From contig CAZFMQ010000002.1 of the NCBI GenBank assembly GCA_964520295.1, forward strand, positions 50,379-114,378: DNA of 64,000 nt, in the 5' to 3' direction. This stretch comes from an uncultured Candidatus Saccharibacteria bacterium (GTDB taxonomy: Bacteria; Patescibacteriota; Minisyncoccia; Phycocordibacterales; EsbW-18). Positions 1,194 to 60,630 of the stretch are shown here, in pieces. Position numbers and translations under genes: made by a program. How positions within the stretch are numbered: the stretch's first letter is position 1; each line of letters starts with the position of its first letter. The notes under the pieces are model-generated. The model did not search any database and was not told the origin of the DNA. It was given only the letters and a program-made list of their open reading frames with translations.

Positions 1194-2465
1194 TTACATG
1201 GTCAGTAGCTTTTTAAGCTTCGGTGTTATTTTATTTGGCCCAATGAATGCTAGGTTTACATTTTTATTTTGGAAAATGTCGCGCGCAACTTTCTGTACGT
1301 CTTGTGCAGTAACGCGTGCAATTTTCTTTAGTGTCTGCTCCGGTGTTTCAATTCGGTGTTTGAGGATTTCTTCACCGCCATACCACATGCCGAGCTGATC
1401 TGATGATTCCAACCCCATCTGAATACGCCCCATCATGAGCTCTTTTGTTTTTGCTAATTCATCGGCAGGCACTTTTTCATCGCGAATACGGCGTAATTCT
1501 TTCATAATTTCTCCAATAACTTCCTCAAGACGCGCGGTCGTCACACCTGCAGATATTTTGAGCACACCTGTGTCAGTCATTGCTTCATCTCCGGCACGCA
1601 CGTAGTAACACACTCCCATTTCCTCACGTAACTTGTGAAAAAGGCGCGAACTCATTCCTTGACCTAACACACCCGCCAATACACTCGCCGCCATATTTCG
1701 TGGGTCTGATAGGTTATACGAGCGAAAACCAAGTACAAAGTGTGTTTGATCTGTACCACGATGTTTTGAAAGTATCTGTGGTGCCTTTTGTTGTTCTTTG
1801 GTTGCGGTACGCTCTGTTCGTTTTTGTTTTGGTACGTGCGCAAAATACTTTTTTGCTTTTGTGAGTGCACTGTGCGGTGATACATCACCTGCAATAACCA
1901 GTACTGACTTGCTCGGCGTATAGTGTTTCGTGCGGTACGCAACAAAATCACGTCGCTTGAATCGTAGTAGGTTTTCTTTTGGCCCCAAAATAGTGCGCCC
2001 TGCGCTTTGATTGCCATACATGACCTTGTCCAGCACATCGTGCACCGTACGCTGTGGCAAATCTTCATACATATTGAGCTCTTCAATAATAACGCCCCGC
2101 TCTTTGATAATTTCGCCTTCAGGCAGGAGCGGATTAAGATACATATCCGACATAATTTCTAAAATGTGATCAAATTGATGCGCACGCGCTTTTGCCCAAT
2201 AGCCTGTGAACTCTTCGGAGGTAAATGCATTGCTTTCGGCGCCGATAGTATCAAGCTCGCGTGAAATCGCACCCGGGGTTGGTCGTTTTGGAGTTCCCTT
2301 GAAACACATGTGTTCCAAAAAATGTGAGATCCCGTTTTCACGCTTGCTCTCATAGCGTGAGCCCGCTTCCACAAGCACCATGACGGTAACCGTCGGATTG
2401 CCTTTCATAGGCACGACGACCACGCGCATGCCATTCGGTAGTTTTGTCTTGTGGAATGTGTTCAT
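1194..2465 (-). CDS. M16 family (insulinase/pitrilysin-like) zinc peptidase
   Basis: 423 aa ORF with an inverted zinc-binding HxxEH motif (HFLEHMCFKGT) near the N-terminus and typical M16 length. Its stop is 1 nt from the alaS start. Confidence 0.8.
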   Translation of the reverse strand: MNTFHKTKLPNGMRVVVVPMKGNPTVTVMVLVEAGSRYESKRENGISHFLEHMCFKGTPKRPTPGAISRELDTIGAESNAFTSEEFTGYWAKARAHQFDHILEIMSDMYLNPLLPEGEIIKERGVIIEELNMYEDLPQRTVHDVLDKVMYGNQSAGRTILGPKENLLRFKRRDFVAYRTKHYTPSKSVLVIAGDVSPHSALTKAKKYFAHVPKQKRTERTATKEQQKAPQILSKHRGTDQTHFVLGFRSYNLSDPRNMAASVLAGVLGQGMSSRLFHKLREEMGVCYYVRAGDEAMTDTGVLKISAGVTTARLEEVIGEIMKELRRIRDEKVPADELAKTKELMMGRIQMGLESSDQLGMWYGGEEILKHRIETPEQTLKKIARVTAQDVQKVARDIFQNKNVNLAFIGPNKITPKLKKLLTM

Positions 2466-3064
2466 ACAAACTGTTTGAGTATTTCAATGTCTTTTTTATG
2501 CGTCGGTAATAGTGCGCGCGAGTATATCGCCGATGCCGGATGGTACAACGGCACGATAATCACATCTCCATACGACGTTGTAGCAGTATACATTTTTCCG
2601 TGCGCAACTGAAATTGGTTCAAGTAACGCCTCCAAACCCATACGCTTCATAATGTACTGCATAGAGAAACGCCCGAGCGTTGCAATGACACGAGGTTGAA
2701 TGATTTCAATTTGTCTATCCAAGAACGGACCATATGCGGCAATCTCTTCGGGGGTTGGATCTCTATTCTCTGGTGGTTTGTCTTTCACAATATTGGTGAT
2801 GTAGATATCTTCACGTGACACACCTGCATGCGCCAACAGTTCATTGAGTATGTTGCCCGCCGCACCACAAAACGGTTTGCCTGTTTTTGCCTCATGACGA
2901 CCTGGTGCTTCACCAACACATAGTATACGTGCGTTATGATCCCCTTCCCCCACCACAGGAAAATACTTCTGTGTTGTACGGTATGTATACAAAGGAGATT
3001 CGGTAAACGTAAGTAGCTCATCTTGAATGGCGCGCATCTGCTCTGTCTTGGATCCCGTATCCAT
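2462..3064 (-). CDS. Uracil-DNA glycosylase, family 4 type
   Basis: The GEAPG...FxGxAG motif (VGEAPGRHEAKTGKPFCGAAGNIL) is diagnostic of UDG family 4 / SPO1-polymerase-related UDGs. The start is chosen at the internal ATG (MDTGSK) because the upstream extension is not conserved-looking. Confidence 0.7.
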   Translation of the reverse strand: MDTGSKTEQMRAIQDELLTFTESPLYTYRTTQKYFPVVGEGDHNARILCVGEAPGRHEAKTGKPFCGAAGNILNELLAHAGVSREDIYITNIVKDKPPENRDPTPEEIAAYGPFLDRQIEIIQPRVIATLGRFSMQYIMKRMGLEALLEPISVAHGKMYTATTSYGDVIIVPLYHPASAIYSRALLPTHKKDIEILKQFV

Positions 3065-3217
3065 GCGCACAGTATACAACAGTGTCCTTACGTGATTACC
3101 ACAAGCATACCGCCGTATTGCTTTTTGAGTATAGAGGCGTACTATCCACCCCAGAGTTGCACCTTCACAATACACAGACATTCGGAAACGTAGTTTCCGA
3201 GCAGAGAAAGGAGAGAA

Positions 3218-4654
3218 ATGCAGGAGAAGCCCAAGCACTATGTCTTGGATACCAGCGTGCTAATGCACGCACCTGAATGCGTAGACCCGCAACGGTCGCC
3301 ATTCGGTGACAACAACGTCACCATCCCTGTGATGGTCTTGCATGAACTTGATCATCTCAAGATGGATGCACGTCGTGGTGCCAACGCCCGAGAGGTCATC
3401 CGTCTCATGGGAGAGGTATTTCCCACCCGGGAAACGATGCACCAGGGTGTGCCCACGGTCGGTGGTGGTCGGATGTTCATCCGCGCCGTCAACGGCAGTG
3501 GCACATTCGTGCTTCCCAAGGAGTATGCCGGCAACACCGGTGATGATTACATCATTCGGGTTGCAGGCATGCTTGCGGAAGAACTGCAGGACACGAATGT
3601 GGTACTGGTGACGAAGGATATTTCCCTTCGTCTCAAGGCACGAGCCGCCGGCGTTGATGCCGACGACCTCAAAACCGGAAAGGTGCAGAAGCCACAGGCT
3701 CTTGCACCCCACATCGCCGACATTGTCGTTGACGGTTCCGTCATCGACGACCTCTACCAAGAGGGGTCCGTCCCCGTGGACGGCTTGCCACTGCCCTACG
3801 GCATCATCTGCAACACCTGTTGCAGATTGACCGATGTGGCGGGCAAAACGCACGCGCTCGGGCTCTACACCACCGATACCATTTCGGTGGTGCGTAAGGT
3901 ACCCGAACACGGCAAGCGTGCCATTGTCCCGCGCAATGCGGAGCAACACTTCGCATACGCGATGGCGGTAAACCCCAACATCCTCACGACTATCCTCGTG
4001 GGAATTGCAGGCACGGGCAAGACGCTCATGGCGTTGAAGGCGGGCGTGGATTTGCTGGAAGATCCCAGCTCATCCATCAATCGCATCCTCGTCTTCAGGC
4101 CAATGATTGAAATCGGATCACCACTCGGCTTTCTGCCGGGTTCAGCCGAGGAGAAGTTCTCGCCGTGGGCGAGCGCCATCACCACCAACCTCGAGCTGTT
4201 GTTTGCCCGTCGTGGGAACAACGGCAACAATGGTCATGCCGCTCAACATGGGGCGGGTACTGACGAGGACGAGGGCAAGAAGCGTGGTAACAAAACAGAA
4301 TCTGGACGTGAGAAGATGCGCCGCTACCTTCGGGAGGGTATCATTTCCGTCCAGCCGGTCACCTTCATTCGAGGTACCACACTTCCCAACTCCTTCATTA
4401 TCGTAGACGAGAGCCAAAACCTCTCGCCGCACGAGGTGAAGGCGCTGCTGACGCGCACAGGCGAAGGGTCCAAGGTGGTGCTGACTGGCGATCTTTCACA
4501 GATCGACAGCCCCCACCTAGATGCCGCATCCTGCGGGCTCGCAAAAGCGCTTGAGCGCATGCGCGGGTACCCAAAGTTCAGCGCCATCGAGCTGACCCGT
4601 GGCGAGCGTTCGCAACTCGCGACGCTCGTTGCTGAAATTTTCTCCGATCTCTGA
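3218..4654 (+). CDS. PhoH2-like protein: N-terminal PIN domain fused to PhoH-type P-loop ATPase (YlaK/PhoH2 architecture)
   Basis: The N-terminus YVLDTSVLMHAP is PIN-like. A Walker A (GIAGTGKT), IIVDESQNL and GDLSQID give the PhoH signature. A strong SD (aaaggagag) lies 3 nt upstream. GC is about 58% against about 46% in the neighbours. Confidence 0.8.
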   Translation: MQEKPKHYVLDTSVLMHAPECVDPQRSPFGDNNVTIPVMVLHELDHLKMDARRGANAREVIRLMGEVFPTRETMHQGVPTVGGGRMFIRAVNGSGTFVLPKEYAGNTGDDYIIRVAGMLAEELQDTNVVLVTKDISLRLKARAAGVDADDLKTGKVQKPQALAPHIADIVVDGSVIDDLYQEGSVPVDGLPLPYGIICNTCCRLTDVAGKTHALGLYTTDTISVVRKVPEHGKRAIVPRNAEQHFAYAMAVNPNILTTILVGIAGTGKTLMALKAGVDLLEDPSSSINRILVFRPMIEIGSPLGFLPGSAEEKFSPWASAITTNLELLFARRGNNGNNGHAAQHGAGTDEDEGKKRGNKTESGREKMRRYLREGIISVQPVTFIRGTTLPNSFIIVDESQNLSPHEVKALLTRTGEGSKVVLTGDLSQIDSPHLDAASCGLAKALERMRGYPKFSAIELTRGERSQLATLVAEIFSDL

Positions 4655-4661
4655 TGTATTT

Positions 4662-4700
4662 GACCCGTCGTGCGCAGTGCGTACGGCGGGTTTCTTTTTT
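4662..4700 (+). terminator. Rho-independent terminator after the PhoH2-like gene
   Basis: GC-rich imperfect hairpin gacccgtcgtgcgcagtgcgtacggcgggt followed by a tttctttttt tract. Confidence 0.6.
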
Positions 4701-4896
4701 GGATATAAAAACAAAATATGAATCATATACAAAAAATATTATGCGACATGGTTTTGTAAGACAGTATCAACACAATCTGTCGGCACTCTTGACCACCTGT
4801 TTTTTTTGAAACATTGTGCTTATCCCCAACGTCTTTCCTTGTATAGTTTTGATATAGTGAAAGAACATTTATCACATAATCTTTGTATTCGTATCT

Positions 4897-7239
4897 ATGG
4901 CACACACAACAGCGAAGCGCGTAAGCGGCATTACCAAGATTGTAAAACGTAACGGTAGCACGGTTGCGTTTGACAGAGATAAAATTGCCGTTGCTGTTGA
5001 AAAAGCATTACGCGCCGCTGGTGAATATACAAAAGGTGCCCCGGAACAAGTCGCAAAAGCAGTAGAAAAAGCACTTATTGCGCAAAAAAAGGCGCAAAAA
5101 TCATATGTACCGACCGTTGAAGGTGTTCAGGATGCTGTGGAAAAGGAGCTCATGCTTCTAGGTCATACAACTACTGCCAAGGCCTATATTCTCTATCGTG
5201 TAGAACGATCTCGCATTCGCTATGAACAGGGCGAAGTGCCTGAACACGTCAAAAAACTTGCCGAAGAGAGCAAAAAGTACTTTAAAGACAACCCATTGGG
5301 TGAATTTGTCTATTTACGCACGTACGCACGCTGGATTGAATCAGAAAATCGTCGCGAAACATGGGTAGAGACTGTTGATCGTTATATGTCATTCATGCGC
5401 GAAAACCTCGGCAAAAAATTAAAAGACAGCGAATACAGCGAATTGCGCGAAGCAATCCTCAAACAAGAAGTTATGCCATCTATGCGTTTGATGCAGTTTG
5501 CTGGTGAACCTGCACGCCGTTGTAACACCTGTGCATACAACTGCACCTACACCGCAACAACCAAATTGGAGGATTTTGCAGAAATTATGTATCTCTCCAT
5601 GCAGGGTTGTGGTGTTGGATTCACCGTTGAAAGCCAAAATATTGAAAAATTGCCACAGATTCAGAAACAATCAGGTACCGTACTCCCTACCTACACCGTT
5701 GCAGATTCAAAGGAGGGGTGGTGTGATGCACTGACACACGGTCTCAAAACATGGTACAACGGCCAAGATGTAGAGTTTGATTTCTCACAGATTCGTCCAG
5801 CGGGTGCACGCCTCAAAATTATGGGTGGAAAAGCATCAGGACCAGATCCATTGCGTTCCCTACTGGTATTTGCACGCGAAAAGATTTTGCGCCGCCAAGG
5901 TCGTCGCCTGCGCCCCGTTGATGCGCACGACATCATCTGCAAAATTGGTGAATGTGTTGTTGCCGGTGGTGTGCGCCGCACCGCAATGATTTCTCTTTCC
6001 GACTTGGACGATTCTGACATGCGCGATGCAAAAAAGGGACGCTTCTACGTCAATGAACCGTATCGCGTGGTAGCAAACAACTCTGCTGTCTATGAATCAC
6101 AGCCATCAAGTACAGAACTTATGGAGGAGTGGATTGCACTCATGAAAAGTGGTTCGGGAGAGCGCGGTCTGTTCAACCGCGGTTCGCTCTCAAAAAATAT
6201 TCCTGCACGCCGTTTGAAGTATTTACAGGCAAAGGGGCGCGCCACACAGGACGGAGTGATGCTGACGAGCATTGGTACCAATCCATGCGCCGAAATTATT
6301 TTGCAACCAAAACAATTCTGTAATCTCTCCGAGGTAATTGCACGTGCCGGCGATACACAAGAAGAGCTCGTACGCAAAGCACGCCTTGCCTCAATGCTCG
6401 GCACGTACCAATCAACACTAACTAACTTCAAATACATCTCAAAAGAGTGGACTGAAAATTGTCGCGACGAATCGTTGTTGGGCGTATCAGTTACAGGACA
6501 ATGGGATTCCGAAGAGTCACGCAACCCTGCAACGTTGCGTGCAATGCGTGACGTGGCAGTAAAGACAAATGCCACCTACGCAAAACGTTTTGGGGTCAAT
6601 CCATCCACGTCAGTGACTGCGGTAAAACCATCAGGTACGGTATCGCAAACATTCAACTGTGCATCAGGTATTCACCCACGACATGCTGAATACTACATTC
6701 GTCGCGTGCGTATCTCTGCAACCGATTCGCTCTTCCGCATGATGCGCGATCAAGGTGTGCCGGCAGTTCCAGAAGTGGGACAGACCGTAGATAATGCCAC
6801 CACGTATGTTCTTGAGTTCCCTGTAAAATCACCGGAGCACTCAAAGTACAAAGATGATTTTAGTGCTATTGATCAGCTTGAGTATTGGAAAAATATCAAA
6901 CTCAACTACACCGAGCACAATCCATCAGCAACTATCTCTGTGGGCGAAGACGAATGGATTGCCGTTGTAGATTGGATTCAGAAAAACTGGGATATTGTCG
7001 GTGGTCTTTCTTTCCTCCCTCGCTTTGATCACGTGTACCAACTTGCGCCATACGAAACAATTGATAAGAAGCGCTACGATGAGATGGTAGCGGCATTTCC
7101 TAAAATTGATTATGCAAAGTTGGTAACCTACGAAGTTACTGATGGAACCGAACAAAAGCGAGAATTAGCATGCGCCGGCGGTACGTGTGAAATTGAACCA
7201 ATGCCTGAAGAGGCAAAAGTGACAAAGGCAAAAGCGTAA
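4897..7239 (+). CDS. nrdJ: Class II (adenosylcobalamin-dependent) ribonucleotide reductase with N-terminal ATP-cone
   Basis: An ATP-cone N-terminus (KIVKRNGSTVAFDRDKIAVAVEKAL), the class II NPCAEI motif (IGTNPCAEIILQP) and a C-terminal Cys pair (CAGGTCEIEP). Confidence 0.85.
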   Translation: MAHTTAKRVSGITKIVKRNGSTVAFDRDKIAVAVEKALRAAGEYTKGAPEQVAKAVEKALIAQKKAQKSYVPTVEGVQDAVEKELMLLGHTTTAKAYILYRVERSRIRYEQGEVPEHVKKLAEESKKYFKDNPLGEFVYLRTYARWIESENRRETWVETVDRYMSFMRENLGKKLKDSEYSELREAILKQEVMPSMRLMQFAGEPARRCNTCAYNCTYTATTKLEDFAEIMYLSMQGCGVGFTVESQNIEKLPQIQKQSGTVLPTYTVADSKEGWCDALTHGLKTWYNGQDVEFDFSQIRPAGARLKIMGGKASGPDPLRSLLVFAREKILRRQGRRLRPVDAHDIICKIGECVVAGGVRRTAMISLSDLDDSDMRDAKKGRFYVNEPYRVVANNSAVYESQPSSTELMEEWIALMKSGSGERGLFNRGSLSKNIPARRLKYLQAKGRATQDGVMLTSIGTNPCAEIILQPKQFCNLSEVIARAGDTQEELVRKARLASMLGTYQSTLTNFKYISKEWTENCRDESLLGVSVTGQWDSEESRNPATLRAMRDVAVKTNATYAKRFGVNPSTSVTAVKPSGTVSQTFNCASGIHPRHAEYYIRRVRISATDSLFRMMRDQGVPAVPEVGQTVDNATTYVLEFPVKSPEHSKYKDDFSAIDQLEYWKNIKLNYTEHNPSATISVGEDEWIAVVDWIQKNWDIVGGLSFLPRFDHVYQLAPYETIDKKRYDEMVAAFPKIDYAKLVTYEVTDGTEQKRELACAGGTCEIEPMPEEAKVTKAKA

Positions 7240-7241
7240 CT

Positions 7242-7772
7242 ATGCTCTACACCCGCAAAGGTGATGACGGCACATCGGGTTTGTTTGGCACAAAAGAGCG
7301 CTTCCCTAAAAACAGTCCTTTGTATGAAGCGCTCGGGGACGTAGATGAACTCAATTCGTTCATTGGATTGTGTCGCACAAAAGCAGGATCATTGCGTGCT
7401 TTTGACGTATCTGCGGAATTACTCACTGTACAACAATGTTTGTTCATCATACAAGCGGAACTCGCAGGAGCAGATAAACGCATGTCTCAAGCGCATATAG
7501 ACGTCTTGGAGGCAGTTGTGGCGCGCGCCGAAGAACCAATTGGCAATCCACACTCGTTTATTGTGCCCGGCACCACTGAAGCGTCGGCGTTGTTGGATGT
7601 AGCGCGCGTCGTATGCCGACGCGCTGAGCGTTCGGTCATAGCCGCGCGCACTCAAAAAGAGATATCAAAAAGTGCGTATGCGTACCTCAACCGCCTCTCT
7701 AGTTTGCTCTACGCACTCGCCCGTCTTGCCGCTTTTGAGAGCGACACACCAGAGGAAAAACCAACCTACTAG
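7242..7772 (+). CDS. PduO-type ATP:cob(I)alamin adenosyltransferase
   Basis: The N-terminal MLYTRKGDDGTSGLFGTKER...LGDVDELNSFIG matches the PduO/MMAB-type ATR signature. It lies immediately downstream of nrdJ. Confidence 0.8.
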   Translation: MLYTRKGDDGTSGLFGTKERFPKNSPLYEALGDVDELNSFIGLCRTKAGSLRAFDVSAELLTVQQCLFIIQAELAGADKRMSQAHIDVLEAVVARAEEPIGNPHSFIVPGTTEASALLDVARVVCRRAERSVIAARTQKEISKSAYAYLNRLSSLLYALARLAAFESDTPEEKPTY

Positions 7773-10627: not shown

Positions 10628-11059
10628 ATGATGACGGAACTGAAGTACCCCGAGTGGGCTCGTGAACATCTCACACCGCACTTGGAAGTGCAGACGGTCT
10701 CGGATCCAGGCACGGTTGAGCTTTGGGTTCATCCGCGCCAGCGTATCCCGTTCAAGCCATATCTGCACGGATTTGAGCTGTACGGATTCCTGAAGGAAGA
10801 GGGTCTTCTGGAGAGGTCACTCTCATTCGGGGAGTTGAAGTTTCTGGAAGCAAACCCACACCGAATCCCCGTCGACTGGCGCACACAAGGTCTCAATGTA
10901 TACGCGTGGGCATCGGTCGTTCGAGGTGATTGGGGAGATCAGGTACCGTACCTATCGTGCGGTATAGACCCACGGTGTCAAACGCCCCAGGTATTCTGGG
11001 TCGGGATCGCATTCGGAGGCTGGGGTTCAAGTGCACGCGCCGGTCTCCGTGCCGCCTAG
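10628..11059 (+). CDS. Hypothetical protein, GC-rich foreign cassette gene 2
   Basis: 143 aa ORF with an SD (gggaaaggag) and about 60% GC. There are no recognisable motifs. It is followed by a strong terminator. Confidence 0.5.
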   Translation: MMTELKYPEWAREHLTPHLEVQTVSDPGTVELWVHPRQRIPFKPYLHGFELYGFLKEEGLLERSLSFGELKFLEANPHRIPVDWRTQGLNVYAWASVVRGDWGDQVPYLSCGIDPRCQTPQVFWVGIAFGGWGSSARAGLRAA

Positions 11060-11072
11060 TGTAGTTTCTTAG

Positions 11073-11108
11073 AGCCCGAATCCTGACATGTCAGGATTCG
11101 GGCTCTTT
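11073..11108 (+). terminator. Perfect 17-bp inverted repeat hairpin terminating the GC-rich two-gene cassette
   Basis: agagcccgaatcctgacatgtcaggattcgggctct is perfectly palindromic and is followed by tttct. Confidence 0.6.
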
Positions 11109-18583: not shown

Positions 18584-18613
18584 AAAAAATCCCGAGCAAT
18601 CGGGATTTTTTAT
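18584..18613. terminator. Bidirectional rho-independent terminator between the convergent dsbA-like and nuclease genes
   Basis: aaaaaatcccgagcaatcgggatttttt: a 7-bp stem with a GCAA loop, flanked by an A-tract and a T-tract. Confidence 0.65.
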
Positions 18614-30702: not shown

Positions 30703-30760
30703 GACCGAAATACCCATTGGCATTTCGGTCTCCAAAAGAAAAATCCCGATATATCGGGAT
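30703..30760. promoter_or_regulatory. Two tandem perfect hairpins between rpsP and the KH gene (attenuator/terminator-like)
   Basis: gagaccgaaat-acccattggc-atttcggtctc (11-bp stem) is immediately followed by aatcccgatatatcgggatt (9-bp stem). A/T tracts lie on both sides. Confidence 0.5.
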
Positions 30761-30761
30761 T

Positions 30762-31274
30762 TTATTCTGTCTTTGGTTCTTCTGTTGCTTCAGGTGCCTC
30801 CGTTGGCGCTTCAACTGGGGCTTCTTCCGCTGGTGCTTCCTCTGCTGGCGCTTCAGCAGGTGTCTCAACAGGAGCTTCTTCGGGAGTCGTTTCAGCTGAT
30901 GCAACTACTGGCTCTGCAACCGCCTCTGTGGGTGCTTCTGCCTGAGCCTCTGCCGCTGCCTCTGGAGCCGCCACCTCTTCTACAGGTTGTTCTTTTACGA
31001 TTGGGGTCTTCTGTGGAAGTACGTTGCGCTTTTTACCTTCAATAACACCCGCGTCCACAAGCATGTTGTACACACGATCTGTTGGCTGTGCACCATGCGC
31101 AATCCAGTACTTTGCACGTTCTGCATCAAGTGACTTTTGTTTTGTCACTGCATTATAAAAACCAATTTGATCTACGTGACTGCCGGCTTTAGGGCCACGA
31201 GTACCTTCAAGCACCACCACACGGAATGAGGGGTCATTGGTACGGCCATATCGTTGAAGTCGAATCTTGAGCAT
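30762..31274 (-). CDS. rpsP: 30S ribosomal protein S16 with about 90-aa Ala/Glu/Pro-rich C-terminal extension
   Basis: MLKIRLQRYGRTNDPSFRVVVLEGTRGPKAGSHVDQIGFYN is canonical bS16. The tail is EAPAEE-type low complexity. The track ORF extends upstream from a GTG, but the real start is at the ATG. Confidence 0.8.
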   Translation of the reverse strand: MLKIRLQRYGRTNDPSFRVVVLEGTRGPKAGSHVDQIGFYNAVTKQKSLDAERAKYWIAHGAQPTDRVYNMLVDAGVIEGKKRNVLPQKTPIVKEQPVEEVAAPEAAAEAQAEAPTEAVAEPVVASAETTPEEAPVETPAEAPAEEAPAEEAPVEAPTEAPEATEEPKTE

Positions 31275-36606: not shown

Positions 36607-36885
36607 TCAGGCGGTGGCAATCAGATACAGGCCCTTCATGACCGCTCCGATGCGGTCCATCAGGGACTGATACACCCTCTCGTTGTCTGGCCGCTCGTCC
36701 TGCCAGACAACCATCACTGACCCAGCGGGTGTGGAGAACCAGGACACGGAATGCCCCACGAGAGGTTCCATGCCCTTTCCCCCTCTGATGACGCTCGCCC
36801 AAATAGTGGGCTTGAGGTACGCCATCACCGCCAGTGTCCTGTTCTCGGCGTACGGGAACGTGCGCACGAGAATCGTACTCTCCAT
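36607..36885 (-). CDS. Hypothetical protein in GC-rich insert between rnc and smc
   Basis: 92 aa from the ATG (MESTILVRTFPYAENR) with an upstream gggagag SD. GC is about 60%. A strong terminator lies downstream. A competing plus-strand ORF (36683-36970) cannot be excluded. Confidence 0.4.
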   Translation of the reverse strand: MESTILVRTFPYAENRTLAVMAYLKPTIWASVIRGGKGMEPLVGHSVSWFSTPAGSVMVVWQDERPDNERVYQSLMDRIGAVMKGLYLIATA

Positions 36886-42922: not shown

Positions 42923-42952
42923 AAAAAACGCCTCGGTGATTACACCGAGGCG
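42921..42952 (-). terminator. Hairpin terminator between convergent dnaE and the GC-rich ORF (T-tract on minus strand)
   Basis: aaaaaaaa-cgcctcggtg-attaca-ccgaggcg. The stop codon of the minus-strand ORF lies in the loop. Confidence 0.55.
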
Positions 42953-43533
42953 TCAGCGGGAGTGGCGAGCAGATGCCACGCACTCCGATATCGCGACCAC
43001 TCCACCGTCGCGGGGCGACCGCCGGGGTGCACGATCCCGTGAATCTGCTCAAGCGATATGTAAAACCGCTTGAACATCATGCGCTCCTTATAATGCGCCA
43101 ACAGATCACTGCTGGGAATGACAAGAATCTCGTCGTTCCCATGCGCAGGATCGATGTGCACGATAGCGAATGCACACGTCTGTAGCGCTTCGCGTGTGAT
43201 GCCGAGCATCGCGTAGCGAATCTCGCCGGCAACGCGCGTGTCACGTACATGGTACGTGTGACAACGCATGCCATTGATATCCAGCAGACGACGCGAGACG
43301 CGAGACATGCGGTTGCCGTAGTGCACGACAACCTGCTCCAGCTTGAAGTGCTGCGCAGACGCTTCCTTCATAATGCGTCCGAACCATGCACGACCATCGA
43401 CGTTGTACCTCTTCGCCTTCGGTGACTTGGTCGCTGGCTTCTTGTCCACCTGAACCTGTGCCTCGGCCTGCTGGGCCTCGCGCAACCTCTGCGCTCGGCG
43501 TTCATTGAAGAACTTCTTCATTGCTCCGCCCAT
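42940..43533 (-). CDS. Hypothetical protein, GC-rich foreign gene with strong SD
   Basis: 197 aa. SD aaggaggagg lies 6 nt upstream of the ATG. GC is about 60%. There are no recognisable motifs. Confidence 0.55.
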   Translation of the reverse strand: MGGAMKKFFNERRAQRLREAQQAEAQVQVDKKPATKSPKAKRYNVDGRAWFGRIMKEASAQHFKLEQVVVHYGNRMSRVSRRLLDINGMRCHTYHVRDTRVAGEIRYAMLGITREALQTCAFAIVHIDPAHGNDEILVIPSSDLLAHYKERMMFKRFYISLEQIHGIVHPGGRPATVEWSRYRSAWHLLATPADASV

Positions 43534-54424: not shown

Positions 54425-54760
54425 CTATTTTTGTAGTTTCTTTGTGATACGACCTTCTTTTATTTCATAACCTTCGGAAATAAGACGATTATGTATTCCA
54501 CGAAGAACATCTCCAAGCTCTGAAATTGCTTTGATGCTTTCATCTGTAAGTGCTGGCTTTTTCACCCCACCTTGTTCATCACTATTTATTTTCTTGTAGA
54601 GATGTGGGTTTTGTTTCTTATCCTGCTTGAGTAGCCAATCAAAAGCTCCGAGTAAATTGTGAGTAGCTTCCCACGCTTCACTATCAGAATACTCAACTCC
54701 ATACTGTTCTTTGAACATCTTTTTGAAACTGGCGACAGTTTCGGGAGAAATATGGACCAT
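54425..54760 (-). CDS. Hypothetical protein (island)
   Basis: 111 aa, AT-rich codon usage, no recognisable motifs. Confidence 0.4.
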   Translation of the reverse strand: MVHISPETVASFKKMFKEQYGVEYSDSEAWEATHNLLGAFDWLLKQDKKQNPHLYKKINSDEQGGVKKPALTDESIKAISELGDVLRGIHNRLISEGYEIKEGRITKKLQK

Positions 54761-54766
54761 TACTTT

Positions 54767-55162
54767 CTATATATTTTTATCAAGAAACTTTTTGAGAGCG
54801 ACCAAATCTTTTTTATCTTTGTCGTAATGATATGAGACAATCCCAACTGATTGAGCAGATTTTACAGCATCGGGATTATGCTCAAAATACACAACATCAT
54901 TTACACTCCAACCATTTTGCTCAAGTAGAGTTTTGAAATAGAGAGGTTCTGGTTTATCTGGATTATGCTTCATTGTAAAAACAGAATACGGGATAGAGTT
55001 CAGACCGAACTGGACCATTTGTTCATCATTTGCATTTGTGAGTATAAGTTTTGGGTTCGGATATGTCTCAAGAAGGTCAAAGAGTTCTTTGTATTGCACA
55101 TATTCTCCAGCTCCATTTTTTATTATTGCTGTATTTACAGCATCAACAAGTATAGTTTTCAT
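54767..55162 (-). CDS. HAD-superfamily hydrolase-like protein with atypical motif I (DAVNT)
   Basis: Motif I ILVDAVNT (nucleophile Asp present, second Asp replaced), motif II ILTNA, motif III Lys and motif IV FEHNPD. Confidence 0.45.
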   Translation of the reverse strand: MKTILVDAVNTAIIKNGAGEYVQYKELFDLLETYPNPKLILTNANDEQMVQFGLNSIPYSVFTMKHNPDKPEPLYFKTLLEQNGWSVNDVVYFEHNPDAVKSAQSVGIVSYHYDKDKKDLVALKKFLDKNI

Positions 55163-55163
55163 A

Positions 55164-57707
55164 TTATTTCTTTTTCAATTCTTCAAGCAACTTCAACTGC
55201 TCACGCTGGAGTGAAGCATCAAAGATGATGTGATACTCAAAGTTCTTATTTACACTCTGGAACTCATTGAACCCAATCTCTTTTGCCAAAATCTCGTTTG
55301 TAAGATTTTCAATCTTACCTTTGTATGACTGCTTGTTTGTTTCGTAGTCAGTTTTTTCATCACTTCCTTTTGCTTCCACTACAATAAAGCGTTTTGTTGT
55401 CTCAATGAGAAAATCTGGAAAGTATCGTGCCACTCTCTTTTGCTCTGGGCTCCAGTATTCAAAATAGAAGTCAGTCCTGCTCGGGTCCGCACACACACGG
55501 GCTCCAGTAAAGTAAACATCTTTGATTGTCTCGTCTTTATCAAGCACATCTCGGAGGTATCGGAACAAATCTTTTTCATCACCGCTATCAAACGCATACG
55601 GATTGATATGGAAGCCAAGACGACCCTTTCGCCCTTCTTCTGCTTCGGCTTCTTTGTATACCACAAGCGTATTCCTGCCTTGCTGGACACTGATTTTGAA
55701 CGGAAAGAGTTTTGTGAGCTCAATTTCTTCTTCAATAATATCCGTCTTTTCTTCATACTTGTATGCACTGCGGAGGATTTCTTGTATCACGAAAGGCACG
55801 AGAGCAAAGTTCTCGTTTACCATTTCAACAAAAGCATCTCGCTTCTTACCGCTTCCAGTGATAATGCTTTCAATAGTGAGACAAGGGAGATGTGTATAGC
55901 GATTGATGATTTCTGCTATCTCATAGAAAGTGAAATCACTTTTGTCTTCAAGTTTTCGGACTGCACGAGCTTCTTTGTATACAGCTTCGCCGTCTTCTCC
56001 GAGAGCGATGCTTCCTTCACTCACAAATGATTGATACTGCTCTGGCTTCCATTTCTTCCAATCAATCTTGATACTCTCTGCGTTTGCTTCTTGCACCGCT
56101 AAAATCTCTTTGAGAACTTTCTTTACTTTGATTGTCTTTCGCTTCTCAACTTCAAGCGTATGCTCAACCATCTTTTGGTCCTGTGCGTTCAATTCACTGA
56201 TGCTTGATGAGAAGTTATTGCGAAGCTCTTTGTCCAAGATAGTAGCTGTTTCTTTTGAGAGAAAGATACTTGCCCGAGTAGAATTGTCGCCGATAGAACG
56301 AAGACATCGTGTTGTAGATTGAAGCACGAGAATAGTGCTTTTCGGCTTCTTGTAGAGTGCCACAGAGACAAGTGAGCGACAGTTCCATCCTTCTGTGCCT
56401 TTGCCCACCAAGAGCACAAAACGCTTCTTACTGTCTGCGGTATCAAGAGCTTTGAACTCATCAGCATTGTCTTCGGCTTCTGTGTGATATTCCAAGATTG
56501 TATCAAGTGAGATATTTTTCTCGGCTAAAATACGCTCAAGTTTTGGCTTCAAATCATTTTGCAAATCAGCAATGCTTGATGCGTAAAAAGCAATTTTTGG
56601 CAATCGTCCTTCAAGCCGTCTTGTGCCATATTCAGAGATGAAAACATCCACCACTTCTTCAATGAACTTCTGGGACCGCACGACACCATAGTCAAAAATC
56701 TTCACCTTCTTGAGTATTCCTTTTTCAATACCTTGCTTCAATCCAAAGTGATACACCACATCGGCAATCATCTTGTTGTTTACATAGGGCGTTCCAGTGA
56801 GGTTCACCACAGAGATGAGTGGAGTGTGCTTGTGAAGATAATCAATCGTCTGGCGTGTTTTCTTCAAATCTCCTTCAAGGTTTTTGCCGTATGAGTGATG
56901 AGCTTCGTCCACGAATATTTGGAGCGAGCCGAGCTGTCGGATTGCTTGCAAACGCATATTCTCAATCTCTCTTTTCTCAAGCTCGTTTTTATCTCCAAAC
57001 AATCGCTTGGTAGCATTGTCGCCATTACTGCTTCGTGTCTTCAAGATAATCTTCTGCGAGTTTGAAACGATAACATTGTAATTGCCAACTGGAGCAAGTG
57101 CGGTATCAGTGCTTTCAAGATAGTGATACTTTATATTCAAAATAATGTTTTCATACTCTTTTGGGAGGACCCGAGAATAGTCAAAGGTTTTGATTTCTTT
57201 TAAGCTCTCAATGATTGTGGTATCGGGAGCAAATACAAGAGCGTTTTTTGCGAAGCGTTCATCGTCTTTGTGATAATACGAAAGCACAAAATCATAGAGC
57301 ATCATTACCGCCATCAAAATTGTTTTACCCGAACCCATCGTCAGTGCATACACTTGGTTTGCATAGTCAGAGGTCCCGAACTTTTCATCAAGGATGACTT
57401 GTATCTTTTCTTCCTTCTTTACATCTCGCATCAACGCAAGCGTTTCTTTATCAGTAAGCCCGAGCCCTTGCATAAAATCAATCTCGTTCTCAAAAGAGTT
57501 TTTGAAAATCTCAACCGATGGCTTGTTGCCGATAACTTCTTTCAAGAAAATGTATGTCTCAAGAGCTTCAATCTGTGGTCCGTGCAAAAAAGACACTCGC
57601 TTGATATGAGTGAGTATATTTTCTGTCTCTTTGTGGACCCCTTTGTATCCATCAGCACGCCATTTCTCAACGAGCTTTTGGATATTTTGTAGAAATAAAC
57701 TGTCCAT
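55164..57707 (-). CDS. res: Type III restriction enzyme Res subunit (SF2 helicase + PD-(D/E)XK nuclease)
   Basis: Helicase motif I ALTMGSGKT, motif II FVDEAHH, and a C-terminal nuclease motif PDFLIE...VVEAKG. Confidence 0.8.
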   Translation of the reverse strand: MDSLFLQNIQKLVEKWRADGYKGVHKETENILTHIKRVSFLHGPQIEALETYIFLKEVIGNKPSVEIFKNSFENEIDFMQGLGLTDKETLALMRDVKKEEKIQVILDEKFGTSDYANQVYALTMGSGKTILMAVMMLYDFVLSYYHKDDERFAKNALVFAPDTTIIESLKEIKTFDYSRVLPKEYENIILNIKYHYLESTDTALAPVGNYNVIVSNSQKIILKTRSSNGDNATKRLFGDKNELEKREIENMRLQAIRQLGSLQIFVDEAHHSYGKNLEGDLKKTRQTIDYLHKHTPLISVVNLTGTPYVNNKMIADVVYHFGLKQGIEKGILKKVKIFDYGVVRSQKFIEEVVDVFISEYGTRRLEGRLPKIAFYASSIADLQNDLKPKLERILAEKNISLDTILEYHTEAEDNADEFKALDTADSKKRFVLLVGKGTEGWNCRSLVSVALYKKPKSTILVLQSTTRCLRSIGDNSTRASIFLSKETATILDKELRNNFSSSISELNAQDQKMVEHTLEVEKRKTIKVKKVLKEILAVQEANAESIKIDWKKWKPEQYQSFVSEGSIALGEDGEAVYKEARAVRKLEDKSDFTFYEIAEIINRYTHLPCLTIESIITGSGKKRDAFVEMVNENFALVPFVIQEILRSAYKYEEKTDIIEEEIELTKLFPFKISVQQGRNTLVVYKEAEAEEGRKGRLGFHINPYAFDSGDEKDLFRYLRDVLDKDETIKDVYFTGARVCADPSRTDFYFEYWSPEQKRVARYFPDFLIETTKRFIVVEAKGSDEKTDYETNKQSYKGKIENLTNEILAKEIGFNEFQSVNKNFEYHIIFDASLQREQLKLLEELKKK

Positions 57708-57711
57708 AGTT

Positions 57712-59475
57712 TTATGCGTTTACTTCAAAGGTTTCAAAGTATTCTTCGCCGAGCACATCCACGACCTTGATGGCGACAGTATATTTGCCTTTCTTTGGAT
57801 ACTCCCACGAATACTTTGCCTTGATAACCTCTTTCTTATCTGGCAAGTCCATCACTTCGGCATTGAACAGCTTGCCGTTGTAATCAACATCAATCGCTAC
57901 GCTATCAATAATCTGTTTGAAATCTTCAACCTTTGCTTTGTGGTCCTTCTTCAACACCTTTTCATTTTCAATCTCCAGCTTCCGCATCAGTATCGGAGAA
58001 TAGAAATCTTTGAGCTCCACAGAGAGTTTCTTGTCTTTTGCTTTCACATCAATCTTCGCTTCTGGTTTCTTCTTGAAGATGAGATTTTTCTTGTCAGTCA
58101 AAATGTCTCGGACCTCTATCTTAACACCCGTCTTGTTTTCTTTCTTGATAAAATCAAGCACATCAAGCTCCATACCAGAGCAGATGACAAGCACGCCTTC
58201 TTCATACACTGGCTCGCCAGCTTTTGATTTTGTCTTCACTGTAAAGCCGTCTTTTTTATCATCCACATTTTTGATGAGTGTGCGAATATCCATCTTGTTG
58301 AGCACTCTGTTCATCGGCATCACTTTCACAAAGTTTTTATCAAGCACACCATCAAAGTATGTTCGCTTTACTGGCTCTACTCCATACATCTCCATTACGA
58401 TTTCTTTTGCTTCAATCTCGTTCTTGAAGACATCATAATCGTTCACATTGAGCACTTTGAAACCGAGAGAACCTTTGAAGCCCTTTGTTTTTTCTTTTTG
58501 CTGGTCCGAAACTATCTGATTGAGATACTTTGCTGTTGTCTGTATTGAGCCGAGATTTATATCGCATCCAATCCATTTTCGCCCCAGTTTTTGTGCAACT
58601 CCACAAGTAGTCCCAGAGCCAACAAAAAAGTCAGCGACAACATCTCCTTCATTTGATGATGCCTTGATTATTCTCGCAAGCAGATTTTCATTTTTTTGCG
58701 TAGGATAGTTTCTCTTTTCACCACTAAAACTCATAATCTGGATACTATCCATACTATCCAATTCATTACAGTTCCAAGTATCTTCAATGGGGTATCCTTC
58801 TCCTTCTGGTTTTGCTCCATCTCTGCGTTTGTAATCCGCTGGGTATTTTATGTATTCCTTATTGAAAGTATGATGTTCTTTGTTTTTTGAGTAGTAGAAA
58901 ATTACATCGTGATTTCGTATCCAGTTTTTTGCAACTGATTTATAGCCAGAAATCCAACCTATACGCCAGATTATCTCTCGCTGGAAGTTTTCAACTCCAA
59001 ATACTTCATCAAGTATTATTTTTATATAGTGAGAGCGTTTCTCGTCCATATGGACATAAATACTTCCAGTTTCAGACAAGAGCTCTCTCATCAATACCAA
59101 TCTTTCGTATATAAATTGTAAATACTCATCTCTCTCCCAAATATCCGTATATTGTTTTTCTTCAAAAAGTCCTTGTCCAACTCCTTCAACTTGCTCACCT
59201 CGTATTTTTACTTTGCGAACATAATCCGCCTTACTATCAAACGGAGGGTCAATGTATATCAAATCAATCTTGCCACGATATTGTTTCAATAGATGTGAAA
59301 GGACCTGCAAGTTATCGCCCCAAAATAGTTTATTGAAATCTTTTGCTTCCTTGTCTCCATACACTTCTGTCTCTTGTGCTGGATAAAATTGAACACTCTC
59401 AAGAGGTTTTTTACCAACCCATTGTAGAAGTGGACGACCTTTTGCTTGTTCTACTTTTTGATAATCATTTTTCAT
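57712..59475 (-). CDS. mod: Type III R-M Mod subunit (beta-class N6-adenine/N4-cytosine DNA methyltransferase)
   Basis: Motif IV DPPF (LIYIDPPFD) precedes motif I FFVGSGTT, which is the beta-class order typical of Mod. There is a Lys-rich C-terminal extension of about 280 aa. Confidence 0.8.
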   Translation of the reverse strand: MKNDYQKVEQAKGRPLLQWVGKKPLESVQFYPAQETEVYGDKEAKDFNKLFWGDNLQVLSHLLKQYRGKIDLIYIDPPFDSKADYVRKVKIRGEQVEGVGQGLFEEKQYTDIWERDEYLQFIYERLVLMRELLSETGSIYVHMDEKRSHYIKIILDEVFGVENFQREIIWRIGWISGYKSVAKNWIRNHDVIFYYSKNKEHHTFNKEYIKYPADYKRRDGAKPEGEGYPIEDTWNCNELDSMDSIQIMSFSGEKRNYPTQKNENLLARIIKASSNEGDVVADFFVGSGTTCGVAQKLGRKWIGCDINLGSIQTTAKYLNQIVSDQQKEKTKGFKGSLGFKVLNVNDYDVFKNEIEAKEIVMEMYGVEPVKRTYFDGVLDKNFVKVMPMNRVLNKMDIRTLIKNVDDKKDGFTVKTKSKAGEPVYEEGVLVICSGMELDVLDFIKKENKTGVKIEVRDILTDKKNLIFKKKPEAKIDVKAKDKKLSVELKDFYSPILMRKLEIENEKVLKKDHKAKVEDFKQIIDSVAIDVDYNGKLFNAEVMDLPDKKEVIKAKYSWEYPKKGKYTVAIKVVDVLGEEYFETFEVNA

Positions 59476-59503
59476 AGTAATTGTAATCTTGGTTAGGGTG
59501 TCC

Positions 59504-59713
59504 TTATGAATGGGACTTCAGATAATTGATAATGTCTTCCTTTCGGTATCTTCGCACTCGTTTCGCACCGATGCGGATGGCTGGAAGTGTGCCATTGTTA
59601 TCCCACTGGCGGAGCGTGTTCGGATGGACCTTCAGCAAATCACACGCTTCTTGCAGTGTCAGAAGTTCTGGAACTTCCTCCTGTTCTTGCTTTTTATCGC
59701 TGTTATTTATCAT
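59504..59713 (-). CDS. Excisionase/AlpA-like helix-turn-helix DNA-binding protein
   Basis: LLTLQEACDLLKVHPNTLRQWDNNGTLPAIRIGAKRVRRYRKEDI is an HTH_17/Xis-type motif. It lies upstream of mod-res. Confidence 0.6.
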   Translation of the reverse strand: MINNSDKKQEQEEVPELLTLQEACDLLKVHPNTLRQWDNNGTLPAIRIGAKRVRRYRKEDIINYLKSHS

Positions 59714-60039
59714 AAAAATTGATTGATTTTCTACTTACCTTTTGATACCATTATCTTACAGTATTTTGCCTTTTGAAGCAAAATTGCCCTGTAGATAAAC
59801 ATTACTATTACTATGAAACTGGGAGTAAAAATCAAAGAAAGAATAGCAAGAACGATTGCCGAACACTTTACTACAAATGAGATAGTAAATGTTTTTACAG
59901 ATGCAAACATCACTACAGACAAATCTCTTTATGCAAAATGGCGAGAATAAAAAGGGACTTTTTCATATACCAAAAGTATACAACATTGGGCAGGTGATGC
60001 TATATACAACTGAACATCCCCACGAGTGAGAAATTGGCA

Positions 60040-60516
60040 CTAATCTAGACCACCTTTATATGGACTAGGATCATTGGCGCATTTTGGATTATCACCTGAT
60101 ACCTGAGAGGCTATTGAAGCGGCAAGTTCATTATCAGGTTCTCTAATCGCTATATGATATGCCGCCGCTCCTGCATCAAAGCAGTGTCCAATCTCAAACA
60201 GAGCCAAGGCATGTGCAGACCAAAAATGAATATCCTCCCACACTAAATCTCTATAATTTTCAATTCCGTCATTGGTAACTTTGACAACCATATCCCAATC
60301 TTTATTTTCTACAAGATAATCAAGGAAAGGAAGTACCTCATCTAGATCGCCTTTCGTGTAAGGATTTTTATTGGAATCTGATTCTTCTGATAACCCAATT
60401 GTCTCAGAAGTATCAATCGGTACGGAAGATATTGAATAGTTTGAGTACTTCCATACAAAGAATCCCACAACAATCAACAGAACTACAACGCCAGAGATAA
60501 TCGAACCTTTCTTCAT
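60040..60516 (-). CDS. Membrane-anchored hypothetical protein (island)
   Basis: An N-terminal TM helix (IISGVVVLLIVVGFFVW). No recognisable motifs. Confidence 0.4.
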   Translation of the reverse strand: MKKGSIISGVVVLLIVVGFFVWKYSNYSISSVPIDTSETIGLSEESDSNKNPYTKGDLDEVLPFLDYLVENKDWDMVVKVTNDGIENYRDLVWEDIHFWSAHALALFEIGHCFDAGAAAYHIAIREPDNELAASIASQVSGDNPKCANDPSPYKGGLD

Positions 60517-60558
60517 ACCCCTGATTATAGCTGCTTGATTCAAAATATGCTAAATATG

Positions 60559-60630
60559 CTCCGCGGGTAGGATTCGAACCTACGACCAACTCCTTAACAG
60601 GGAGCTGCACTACCGCTGTGCTACCGCGGA
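60559..60630 (-). tRNA. tRNA-Asn (anticodon GUU)
   Basis: The reverse complement folds as a cloverleaf: acceptor UCCGCGG/CCGCGGA, D-arm GCAC-AGCGGUA-GUGC, anticodon stem GCUCC/GGAGU with loop CUGUUAA, T-arm GUAGG-UUCGAAU-CCUAC, discriminator G. Confidence 0.85.

Follow-up and report, generated by a model that had tools for sequence, protein, structure and literature searches.

A solo PhoH2 (PIN-PhoH) cassette exchanged among Campbellbacteria-like genomes, with a GC-rich, hairpin-rich coding sequence that may be maintained by selection on its transcript

PhoH2 proteins join a PIN-domain RNase to an RNA helicase, and in mycobacteria they are accompanied by a partner, PhoAT (PMC7390352). The family is widespread and poorly understood, and has been studied almost solely in mycobacteria, where the PhoAT partner exists; PhoH2 is in fact spread over many phyla, and its association with Actinobacteria reflects this study bias (PMC7390352). 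In Synechococcus WH8102, the island-borne PIN-PhoH gene SYNW1946 restrains the cyanophage Syn9 and limits phage production (PMC5490813). Here, we analyzed a stretch of 64,000 nucleotides from contig CAZFMQ010000002.1, hereafter the window, in which a PhoH2 gene was located between the genes for a uracil-DNA glycosylase (UDG) and the ribonucleotide reductase NrdJ. The NrdJ protein was 86% identical to its homolog in a Campbellbacteria metagenome-assembled genome and 73% to 77% identical to those of many Paceibacteria, which places the host in the Campbellbacteria/Paceibacteria group and suggests that it is a Candidatus Campbellbacteria-like bacterium (Patescibacteria). We interpret the gene as a solo, antitoxin-less PhoH2 cassette that is exchanged among related genomes, and infer that selection on the transcript keeps its coding sequence rich in GC and in hairpins, a reading that we hold with slightly more belief than doubt.

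The PhoH2 open reading frame (ORF) had a GC content of 0.580 and a GC content at third codon positions (GC3) of 0.687, and the whole window had a GC content of 0.468. The corresponding GC and GC3 values were 0.46 and 0.41 for the UDG gene and 0.47 and 0.43 for nrdJ, and GC3 ranged from about 0.41 to 0.50 in the flanking genes for an M16 peptidase, UDG, NrdJ and a cobalamin adenosyltransferase (CobAT), with about 0.44 being typical. GC3 was raised over the entire length of PhoH2 (0.57 to 0.77), and in a leave-one-out likelihood test PhoH2 ranked first among the 55 ORFs for atypical synonymous codon usage (z = -7.5). A first-pass annotation had described a gene of about 58% GC with GC-rich third positions next to neighbors of about 46%, and had suggested a comparison of GC3 and codon usage with the rest of the contig; the measured values agree with this description and PhoH2 was the strongest outlier. 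Its composition is host-atypical, in the manner of a horizontally acquired gene or islet.

Protein searches identified a tight group of 8 relatives with 49% to 62% identity, one of which is annotated as Candidatus Campbellbacteria (CP064977.1). Beyond this group, the identity fell sharply to about 38% (Desulfuromonadales, cyanobacteria and Myxococcota). When 1.84 billion representatives were searched exhaustively with HMMER, the result was only 2 clusters at 50% identity with more than 286 bits, and no closer lineage. A profile scan of genome contigs with the clade alignment returned, among the matches listed, relatives with 32% to 38% identity from many phyla and no clade members. The PIN-PhoH genes recovered from IMG/VR in a search for a viral reservoir were at most 35% identical, and a search of metagenomes with a clade-specific DNA pattern recovered P0007-type contigs only.

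The GC3 excess over native neighbors was present in all 8 clade members with DNA and ranged from +0.10 to +0.32 (Table 1), in hosts whose GC3 ranged from 0.26 to 0.56. Expressed as a logit, the offset was +0.8 to +1.4 in 7 of the 8 members and +0.42 in L179, and the GC3 of PhoH2 followed that of the host (r = 0.77, slope 0.66). At the third positions of the clade genes, C was increased and A was strongly depleted, with a bias towards pyrimidines. The GC3 difference from the flanks had a median of only +0.03 (SD 0.07) at 69 non-clade PhoH2 loci from many phyla, which rules out GC3 enrichment as an intrinsic property of the PhoH2 family and indicates that the anomaly is clade-specific. Since the excess was seen in all 8 orthologs, whatever the GC content of the host, a fresh import into the window genome does not fit.

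Table 1. GC3 of PhoH2 and of its neighbors, and folding z-score of PhoH2, in the clade members
Genome	GC3, PhoH2	GC3, neighbors	Folding z
Window	0.69	0.43	-8.1
L002	0.63	0.33	-5.6
L003	0.755	0.56	-3.7
L006	0.79	0.47	-5.0
L008	0.76	0.55	-3.3
L010	0.73	0.55	-4.7
L178	0.54	0.26	-3.9
L179	0.57	0.465	-2.9

The clade genes were also unusual in their predicted RNA folding, for which each gene was compared with shuffled sequences that kept the protein, its own codon usage and the dinucleotide counts, the measure being the mean minimum free energy (MFE) of 120-nt segments. All 8 PhoH2 genes in the clade were more stably folded than their synonymous shuffles (Table 1). Most of the other genes tested from the candidate phyla radiation (CPR), whether native or GC-rich, had z-scores between -1.8 and +1.1, CobAT being outside this range at -2.9, and 6 of 8 non-clade PhoH2 genes were near 0. 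The mean fold per 120 nt was -43 kcal for the native gene, -37 for the shuffles with its own codons and -29 after recoding with host codons. The excess was distributed over the first 1,200 nt or so of PhoH2 and persisted when codons were shuffled locally in blocks of 50, which rules out regional GC heterogeneity as its cause. There is hence an excess of folding at the level of codon arrangement that composition alone does not explain.

Clade PhoH2 genes were identified at the same site, in the order M16-UDG-PhoH2-nrdJ-CobAT, in 4 other genomes (L003, L008, L010 and L178). In L092/L093, which contained the closest relative of the window nrdJ (86%), the gap between UDG and nrdJ was 1.1 kb and was empty of PhoH2, with no remnant. 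The gene was located at a second site in L002 and L006, between the adenine glycosylase region and murE and beside tRNA-Glu, where it also adjoined a recombinase fragment, small ORFs and a LOOT RNA in L002. In L179, it was adjacent to genes for adenine glycosylase and Zincin_1, both of which were also seen in L006, and nrdJ was found in yet another context in the L002- and L006-type genomes. The search in sister genomes that had been proposed in the first-pass annotation therefore placed the gene at the same site in 4 genomes and elsewhere in 3, with an empty site in the closest relative, so that its presence varies among close relatives.

The history of PhoH2 was discordant with that of the flanking genes, in both directions and at both the protein level and 4-fold degenerate sites. 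In L003, L008 and L010, the flanking genes were 90% to 97% identical in protein sequence (78% to 92% for M16), whereas PhoH2 was just 59% to 75% identical. Conversely, the PhoH2 proteins of L003 and L006 were 91% identical despite unrelated genomic contexts. The excess identity at 4-fold sites over the saturation expectation was 0.14 for PhoH2 versus 0.38 to 0.48 for the flanks in the L003-L008 comparison, and these alleles predate the split of the genomes. With L095 and L006 taken as 1 genome, it was 0.41 for PhoH2 versus 0.21 for nrdJ in the L003-L006 comparison, and these alleles appear to postdate the split. L003 and L006 resembled each other at the nucleotide level (84% identity) over a limited stretch, confined to the segment from position -75 relative to the ATG through the stop codon, with unrelated flanks, and the block of low identity between L003, L008 and L010 spanned the promoter, the coding sequence (CDS) and the terminator. 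PhoH2 is an accessory gene that is mobile within the lineage, where it has been gained, lost, moved and replaced by recombination between related genomes.

Several features mark PhoH2 as a self-contained one-gene cassette with its own promoter, a leader with a stem-loop, a strong Shine-Dalgarno (SD) sequence and its own terminator (Table 2), since the promoter-like box, the SD and the terminator were common to all aligned orthologs. The box TTGCnT-N16/17-G(C/T)GTACTATC was aligned and nearly invariant 5' of 6 orthologs at 2 different genomic sites, and L179 carried a similar box; a generic sigma-70 scan of the window made no call at this element. The leader stem-loop was 9 bp long in both the MFE and the centroid structures, which left the SD unoccluded, and 6 of the 8 ortholog leaders had a stem-loop directly preceding the SD, with different sequences and a recurrent GTTC..GAAC core. 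All 8 orthologs contained an SD. In the window, an SD-like core was found at the longest start of just 6 of the 55 ORFs (background 7%), and the strong SDs belonged mostly to other GC-rich outlier ORFs. A hairpin of its own, followed by a T-run, was present after the stop codon of every PhoH2 ortholog; the T-run in the window was TCTTTTTTGG. Three elements of the first-pass annotation, namely a canonical SD lacking in most window genes, a hairpin immediately upstream of it and a separate hairpin/T-tract terminator, were all recovered here.

Table 2. Coordinates of the PhoH2 cassette, its domains and its flanking genes in the window
Feature	Position	Strand	Remarks
PhoH2 (PIN-PhoH) coding sequence, 478 aa, intact	3218..4654	+	Pfam PIN_4 and PhoH; GC3-rich, hairpin-rich
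PIN_4 RNase domain (PF13638), aa 8-151	3239..3670	+	Pfam, E 9e-25
PhoH P-loop ATPase/helicase domain (PF02562), aa 236-473	3923..4636	+	Pfam, E 4e-47
Disordered Gly/Asn/Glu/Lys-rich loop, aa ~333-362	4214..4303	+	Clade-specific; pLDDT 46-56
Promoter-like element: -35 TTGCTT (3118-3123), 16-nt spacer, -10 TACTAT (3140-3145)	3118..3145	+	Conservation only
Putative 5' leader, ~65 nt	3153..3217	+	Start deduced from where the conserved -10 box lies
Leader stem-loop TCGGAAAC-GTA-GTTTCCGA	3182..3200	+	Perfect 8-bp stem, 6 nt before the SD
Shine-Dalgarno AAAGGAGAG	3207..3215	+	Visible in the sequence itself
Intrinsic terminator, stem 4662-4692 plus T-run	4662..4702	+	14 pairs, dG -27 kcal/mol, z -5.9
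Left flank: UDG, 200 aa	2462..3064	-	Native composition; 72-77% identical to sister-genome orthologs
Right flank: class II ribonucleotide reductase nrdJ	4897..7239	+	Native composition; 84-86% identical to sister-genome orthologs

The longest UDG ORF (2462-3238, minus strand, 258 amino acids with a GTG start) overlapped the start of PhoH2, and its Pfam match began at amino acid 97. The gene calls on the identical contig and the orthologs gave a UDG of 200 amino acids starting at 3064; the longer ORF is over-extended, and the start at 3064 gives a divergent spacer of 153 bp. No antitoxin-like neighbor of PhoH2 was found, the gene being flanked by the divergent UDG across this spacer and by the terminator straight after its stop codon. 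The sole ORF upstream of PhoH2 (3082-3276) began before the putative promoter, and the small ORFs upstream of PhoH2 in L006 fell outside the shared cassette. An adjacent and co-transcribed small antitoxin gene, of the kind seen in PhoH2-PhoAT or type II toxin-antitoxin systems, was absent from the cassette, as was a gene for a DNA-binding partner downstream, so that the locus falls outside the definition of a two-gene toxin-antitoxin module. Rfam gave no match for the leader, the CDS or the sister-genome spacer.

No integrase or tRNA gene was located near PhoH2 in the window, and a search for direct or terminal inverted repeats flanking the gene gave only short matches at chance level. We noted that an inverted pair of 15 nt with 80% complementarity (3103-3117 and 4682-4696) brackets the cassette almost exactly, its left arm lying immediately 5' of the -35 box and its right arm within the 3' side of the terminator stem. 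The pair is probably due to chance, though the limits of the cassette deduced by comparison with the sister genomes fall at the same places. It was also considered that the native genes might be mostly leaderless, which was not supported, a -10-like box being located beside the start in only 4 of the 55 ORFs.

A spacer of 0.9 to 1.1 kb with a GC content of about 0.52 and no convincing ORF separated UDG from PhoH2 in L003 (9014-10000), L008 (9089-10000) and L010 (2574-3504), and UDG from nrdJ in L092 (6879-8000). Within it, a block of about 140 nt (L003 9172-9312) was 92% conserved in L003, L008 and L010 as compared with about 80% in the neighboring coding DNA. This block, which had no Rfam match and was absent from the window with its 153-bp spacer, may encode a small RNA or a small protein that has escaped annotation. 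At the second site, the segment directly upstream of PhoH2 in the complete Campbellbacteria genome (L002 4805-9710, CP064977.1) contained small ORFs, one of them with a hit to sigma-70 region 4, the LOOT RNA (7350-7458), a Zn_ribbon_recom recombinase fragment and tRNA-Glu(CTC). The cluster looks like an integrated element, and its tRNA-Glu gene was inverted relative to that in L006.

PhoH2 may be one of a small group of accessory genes that are rich in GC and preceded by an SD. Three other ORFs in the window were rich in GC3 (0.60 to 0.71), at 10628-11059 (plus strand), 36607-36884/37038 (minus strand) and 42940-43533 (minus strand), none of which matched Pfam, NCBIfam or PADLOC models, and each was led by a strong SD-like motif (AGGAG, GGGAGAG and AGGAGG). 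The 197-aa ORF at 42940-43533 was an ORFan with no homolog in a search of 5.8 billion proteins and gave no clue to a donor. The region at 36.6 to 37.0 kb had a folding z-score of -4.5, a TTGACA-type promoter-like sequence upstream and 2 terminator hairpins downstream. GC-rich genes also seem to be scattered through the low-GC sister genomes (L002 941-4016; L006 1979-2641 and 6690-7235; L179 363-1277), with GC3 values of 0.71 for NUDIX, 0.88 for NAMPT, 0.74 for HD_4, 0.75 for ParB-CE, 0.72 for ClpP and 0.73 for an unknown ORF of 304 amino acids.

The encoded protein contained the features expected of PhoH2, with an N-terminal PIN_4 domain in which the acidic residues D11, E43, D45, D109 and D134 were invariant across 57 homologs, and a C-terminal PhoH ATPase domain in which the Walker A motif GxxGTGKT (G262-T269) and the Walker B residues D397-E398 were likewise invariant. 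In the AlphaFold model (pLDDT 86), Foldseek matched the PIN domain to SMG6, Nmd4 and archaeal PIN domains, and superposed the PhoH domain on the PhoH2 ATPase of Corynebacterium glutamicum (3B85) with a target-normalised TM of 0.81 and 27% identity. The score against the NCBIfam model for PhoH2 (NF053827) was 223 bits in 2 stretches, below the equivalog cut-off of 680 bits, and the protein is best described as a distant member of the PhoH2 family rather than an equivalog of the curated mycobacterial-type set. Judging from its homology to the mycobacterial enzymes (PMC7390352) and its conserved motifs, it is expected to act as a 5'-3' RNA helicase powered by ATP and to feed unwound RNA to the PIN RNase. 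A Gly/Asn-rich insertion had been reported as unusual for this protein; the stretch (amino acids ~330-362) does sit between Walker A (262-269) and Walker B (396-398) and is predicted to be disordered, yet it is clade-wide and not unique to the window, being present with variable length in P0001 to P0008 and missing in P0009 and most outgroups.

These data can be joined into a model in which the intact protein, with its PIN RNase at the N terminus and its PhoH ATPase at the C terminus, would act as a 5'-3' helicase that delivers RNA to its own nuclease. The lineage is confined to Campbellbacteria-like bacteria, with other Patescibacteria as the next relatives, and is not a fresh import from a high-GC phylum; within it, the gene is gained, lost, moved to a second site, replaced allele for allele and quick to diversify. 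The patchy distribution, the allelic hyperdiversity and the cassette exchange resemble those of conflict or defense genes, and by this analogy PhoH2 may have such a role. Atypical codons, abundant local hairpins and a raised GC3 are stable properties of the lineage; we infer that they are maintained by selection on the transcript and are not leftover donor composition, and an offset in every host would follow if the transcript itself were selected. A heavily folded, rare-codon and SD-dependent mRNA could restrain a potentially toxic RNase in cis, or it could protect or stabilise the message, and such a cis-acting requirement would travel with the cassette among Campbellbacteria and hold its GC3 about 1 logit unit above that of the host. 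The specific proposal that the excess is the footprint of selection for a folded transcript, by which a solo RNase/helicase is controlled or protected in cis, is a tentative one, about which we have more doubt than confidence.

Other explanations were considered, and a reservoir, incomplete amelioration and biased gene conversion were each judged less likely than selection on the transcript. The best of them, itself unlikely, is a circulating pool with a reservoir in unsampled, higher-GC Campbellbacteria, from which partly ameliorated copies have recently arrived by homologous replacement. The evidence for allelic replacement and for transfer between genome types fits such a pool, as do the other GC-rich and often SD-led accessory ORFs scattered through these genomes. 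However, all 8 hosts were below their own PhoH2 in GC3, even those with a GC3 of 0.55, none of the sequences of such a reservoir was found in a collection of 15 billion proteins, and the folding excess beyond composition would be left unexplained.

Rather less credible is a single ancient acquisition by the ancestor of Campbellbacteria from a donor of very high GC content, with vertical descent and slow, incomplete amelioration thereafter. Synonymous sites were near saturation between most alleles and most genomes, with an excess identity of 0.04 to 0.15, so the composition should have equilibrated. Equal amelioration across lineages would need a donor GC3 above 1. A donor pool with a GC3 of about 0.9 and lineages that are roughly half ameliorated does fit arithmetically, and is in line with the enrichment of all 8 orthologs and the slope of 0.66 against host GC3, but requires a coincidental half-amelioration in every lineage. 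The discordance with the flanks in both directions, the 2 insertion sites and the empty site argue further against simple vertical descent, and the nearest outgroups belong to the CPR. Given the near-saturated synonymous sites, the tracking of host GC3 by the gene and the donor GC3 that would be needed, a persistent gene-specific pressure is a simpler reading than amelioration from a single donor.

GC-biased gene conversion (gBGC), in which frequent recombination combined with biased repair raises GC3 as a neutral by-product, is improbable as the source of the excess. A GC3 shift of +0.2 to +0.3 is much above the effects usually ascribed to gBGC in bacteria, and the flanks, which also take part in homologous exchange, were without GC3 enrichment. 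Neither the excess of folding nor the third-position bias towards pyrimidines nor the strong depletion of A is expected from the process, although the evidence for recombination and replacement at the cassette is strong and the similar logit offset in most hosts is what a constant bias would give.

The first-pass annotation had instead proposed a recent insert from a high-GC donor that is not yet ameliorated, with Actinobacteria, and possibly the host of an episymbiont, as the source, which would fit the fact that PhoH2 is best known from that phylum. The proposal draws on the atypical GC content and codons, on an SD in an SD-poor genome and on the absence of the gene from the closest sister genome, and a first neighbor-joining tree of 46 taxa also favored it in that the CPR and actinobacterial sequences, 2 long branches, were joined in 88% of the bootstraps. 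This support fell to 3% to 6%, under several distance corrections, after the addition of 2 Actinobacteria and the 12 top HMMER representatives. In the better-sampled tree, the PhoH2 clade (100% bootstrap support) joined sequences from Candidatus Azambacteria and Candidatus Taylorbacteria, and a sister group in Actinobacteria was rejected in view of the collapse in support and of these new patescibacterial sisters. The actinobacterial proteins (Tsukamurella, Nocardia, Kitasatospora, Nonomuraea, Euzebya and Arthrobacter) were 30% to 34% identical in tblastn searches and 33% to 37% identical in a trimmed alignment, below the 38% to 40% for Desulfuromonadota and cyanobacteria, and the PhoH2 domain of C. 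glutamicum (3B85) was equally distant from the window protein and an outgroup (102 versus 103 bits). On these grounds, the idea of an actinobacterial donor is unsupported.

The nearest homologs were instead the Campbellbacteria-like orthologs (49% to 64% identity), 4 of them at the same locus and with the promoter box in common, followed by other Patescibacteria, and none closer was present among the 1.84 billion representatives; no distant donor lineage in Actinobacteria emerged from the searches. What stands of the proposal is that the gene is non-core and horizontally exchanged; that the transfer was recent, or from an actinobacterial or host donor, is largely refuted and very hard to sustain. 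Weakest of all is an ordinary, vertically inherited and fast-evolving housekeeping gene with a composition that is an outlier by chance, which agrees with a locus that is syntenic in 5 genomes and is already contradicted by the empty and the alternative site, by synonymous sites that have diverged more than those of the flanks in some pairs and less in another, and by an anomaly that recurs in all 8 orthologs and tops the 55 ORFs.

Several observations nevertheless weigh against an exchanged cassette with a selected transcript. Excess folding was also seen in 2 of the control genes, NAMPT in L002 (z = -4.9) and the window ORF at 36607 (z = -4.5), and in the remaining 2 non-clade PhoH2 genes (z = -3.4 and -3.8), and it was almost as strong on the antisense strand, which makes a cause at the DNA level possible. 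A conserved RNA fold inside the CDS can be ruled out, as there was no compensatory signal: pairs with a changed side were canonical in 28.5% of cases versus 37.8% in shifted controls. The clade genes share a general structuredness and not a single fold, given that the hairpins are not conserved between orthologs, and generic structure of this kind could be a side effect of some mutational process. The PADLOC defense models gave no system match for PhoH2, only weak helicase-motif hits (Nhi 5.6e-6, AbiO and GajB). Finally, the trees were all made by neighbor-joining, and the joint treatment of L095 and L006 in the nrdJ comparison is an assumption based on a shared sample and compatible GC content.

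If the anomaly is selected, as we favor, PhoH2 would illustrate clearly how the needs of an RNase's own message can shape synonymous sites. A partner-less, loop-bearing and mobile PhoH2 cassette would represent a new form of the family, with conflict-gene-like features in the reduced genomes of Patescibacteria. The locus also calls for caution in the detection of horizontal gene transfer from composition, in that a strong anomaly was common to all orthologs in hosts of very different GC content.

Two further features of the window were noted. An AT-rich block at 54425-60630 (GC 0.37 to 0.42 versus 0.47 for the window) looks like a second compositional island, of the opposite sign to PhoH2. It contained a type III restriction-modification pair, Res (ResIII, 55164-57707) and Mod (N6_N4_Mtase, 57712-59475), as well as 2 small unknown ORFs, about 1 kb from tRNA-Asn(GTT) at 60558-60630. 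A terminator-like hairpin with a shared arm recurred at 18586-18609, 30740-30763 and 11077-11100, twice as AAAATCCCGA-loop-TCGGGATTTT and once in the related form CGAATCCTGA...TCAGGATTCG, which points to a terminator motif used more than once or to a small family of repeats.

Among described systems, PhoH2/PhoAT of Mycobacterium tuberculosis and M. smegmatis (NF053827, "RNA 5'-3' helicase PhoH2") has the same fusion of PIN_4 and PhoH, and its PIN acidic residues and Walker A and B motifs are also conserved in the window protein. The latter differs in being only 30% to 37% identical to the actinobacterial proteins (223 bits versus the 680-bit cut-off), in its clade-specific disordered loop, and in that its gene is accessory and mobile within the lineage and has no phoAT-like gene upstream, the cassette beginning about 100 nt before the ATG. 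The C. glutamicum structure 3B85, which covers the ATPase domain only, has the same C-terminal fold and is as far from a Desulfuromonadales homolog as from the window protein, and thus gives no sign of a special actinobacterial affinity. SYNW1946 is likewise a PIN-PhoH gene in a variable, island-like position, and some of the best matches outside the CPR (38% to 40%) were cyanobacterial PhoH2 proteins; SYNW1946 is, however, in a 2-gene operon with a DNA-binding partner, whereas the window gene is predicted to be monocistronic, with its own terminator and no PADLOC match.

Classical genomic islands and the amelioration model share with this locus the atypical GC3 and codon usage, the presence/absence polymorphism, the alternative site next to a tRNA gene and the discordant phylogeny. 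In contrast to such islands, this is a cassette of a single gene that lacks both convincing flanking repeats and an integrase in the window, its donors are close relatives rather than a distant high-GC phylum, and the offset has not decayed but persists in all orthologs. PIN toxins of the VapC/SMG6 type in type II toxin-antitoxin systems have the PIN_4 fold, the acidic active site and a selfish- or conflict-like evolution in common with PhoH2 of this clade. Unlike these toxins, PhoH2 has no adjacent antitoxin gene and carries its PIN domain fused to a helicase, and the control proposed here would be exerted in cis by its own mRNA.

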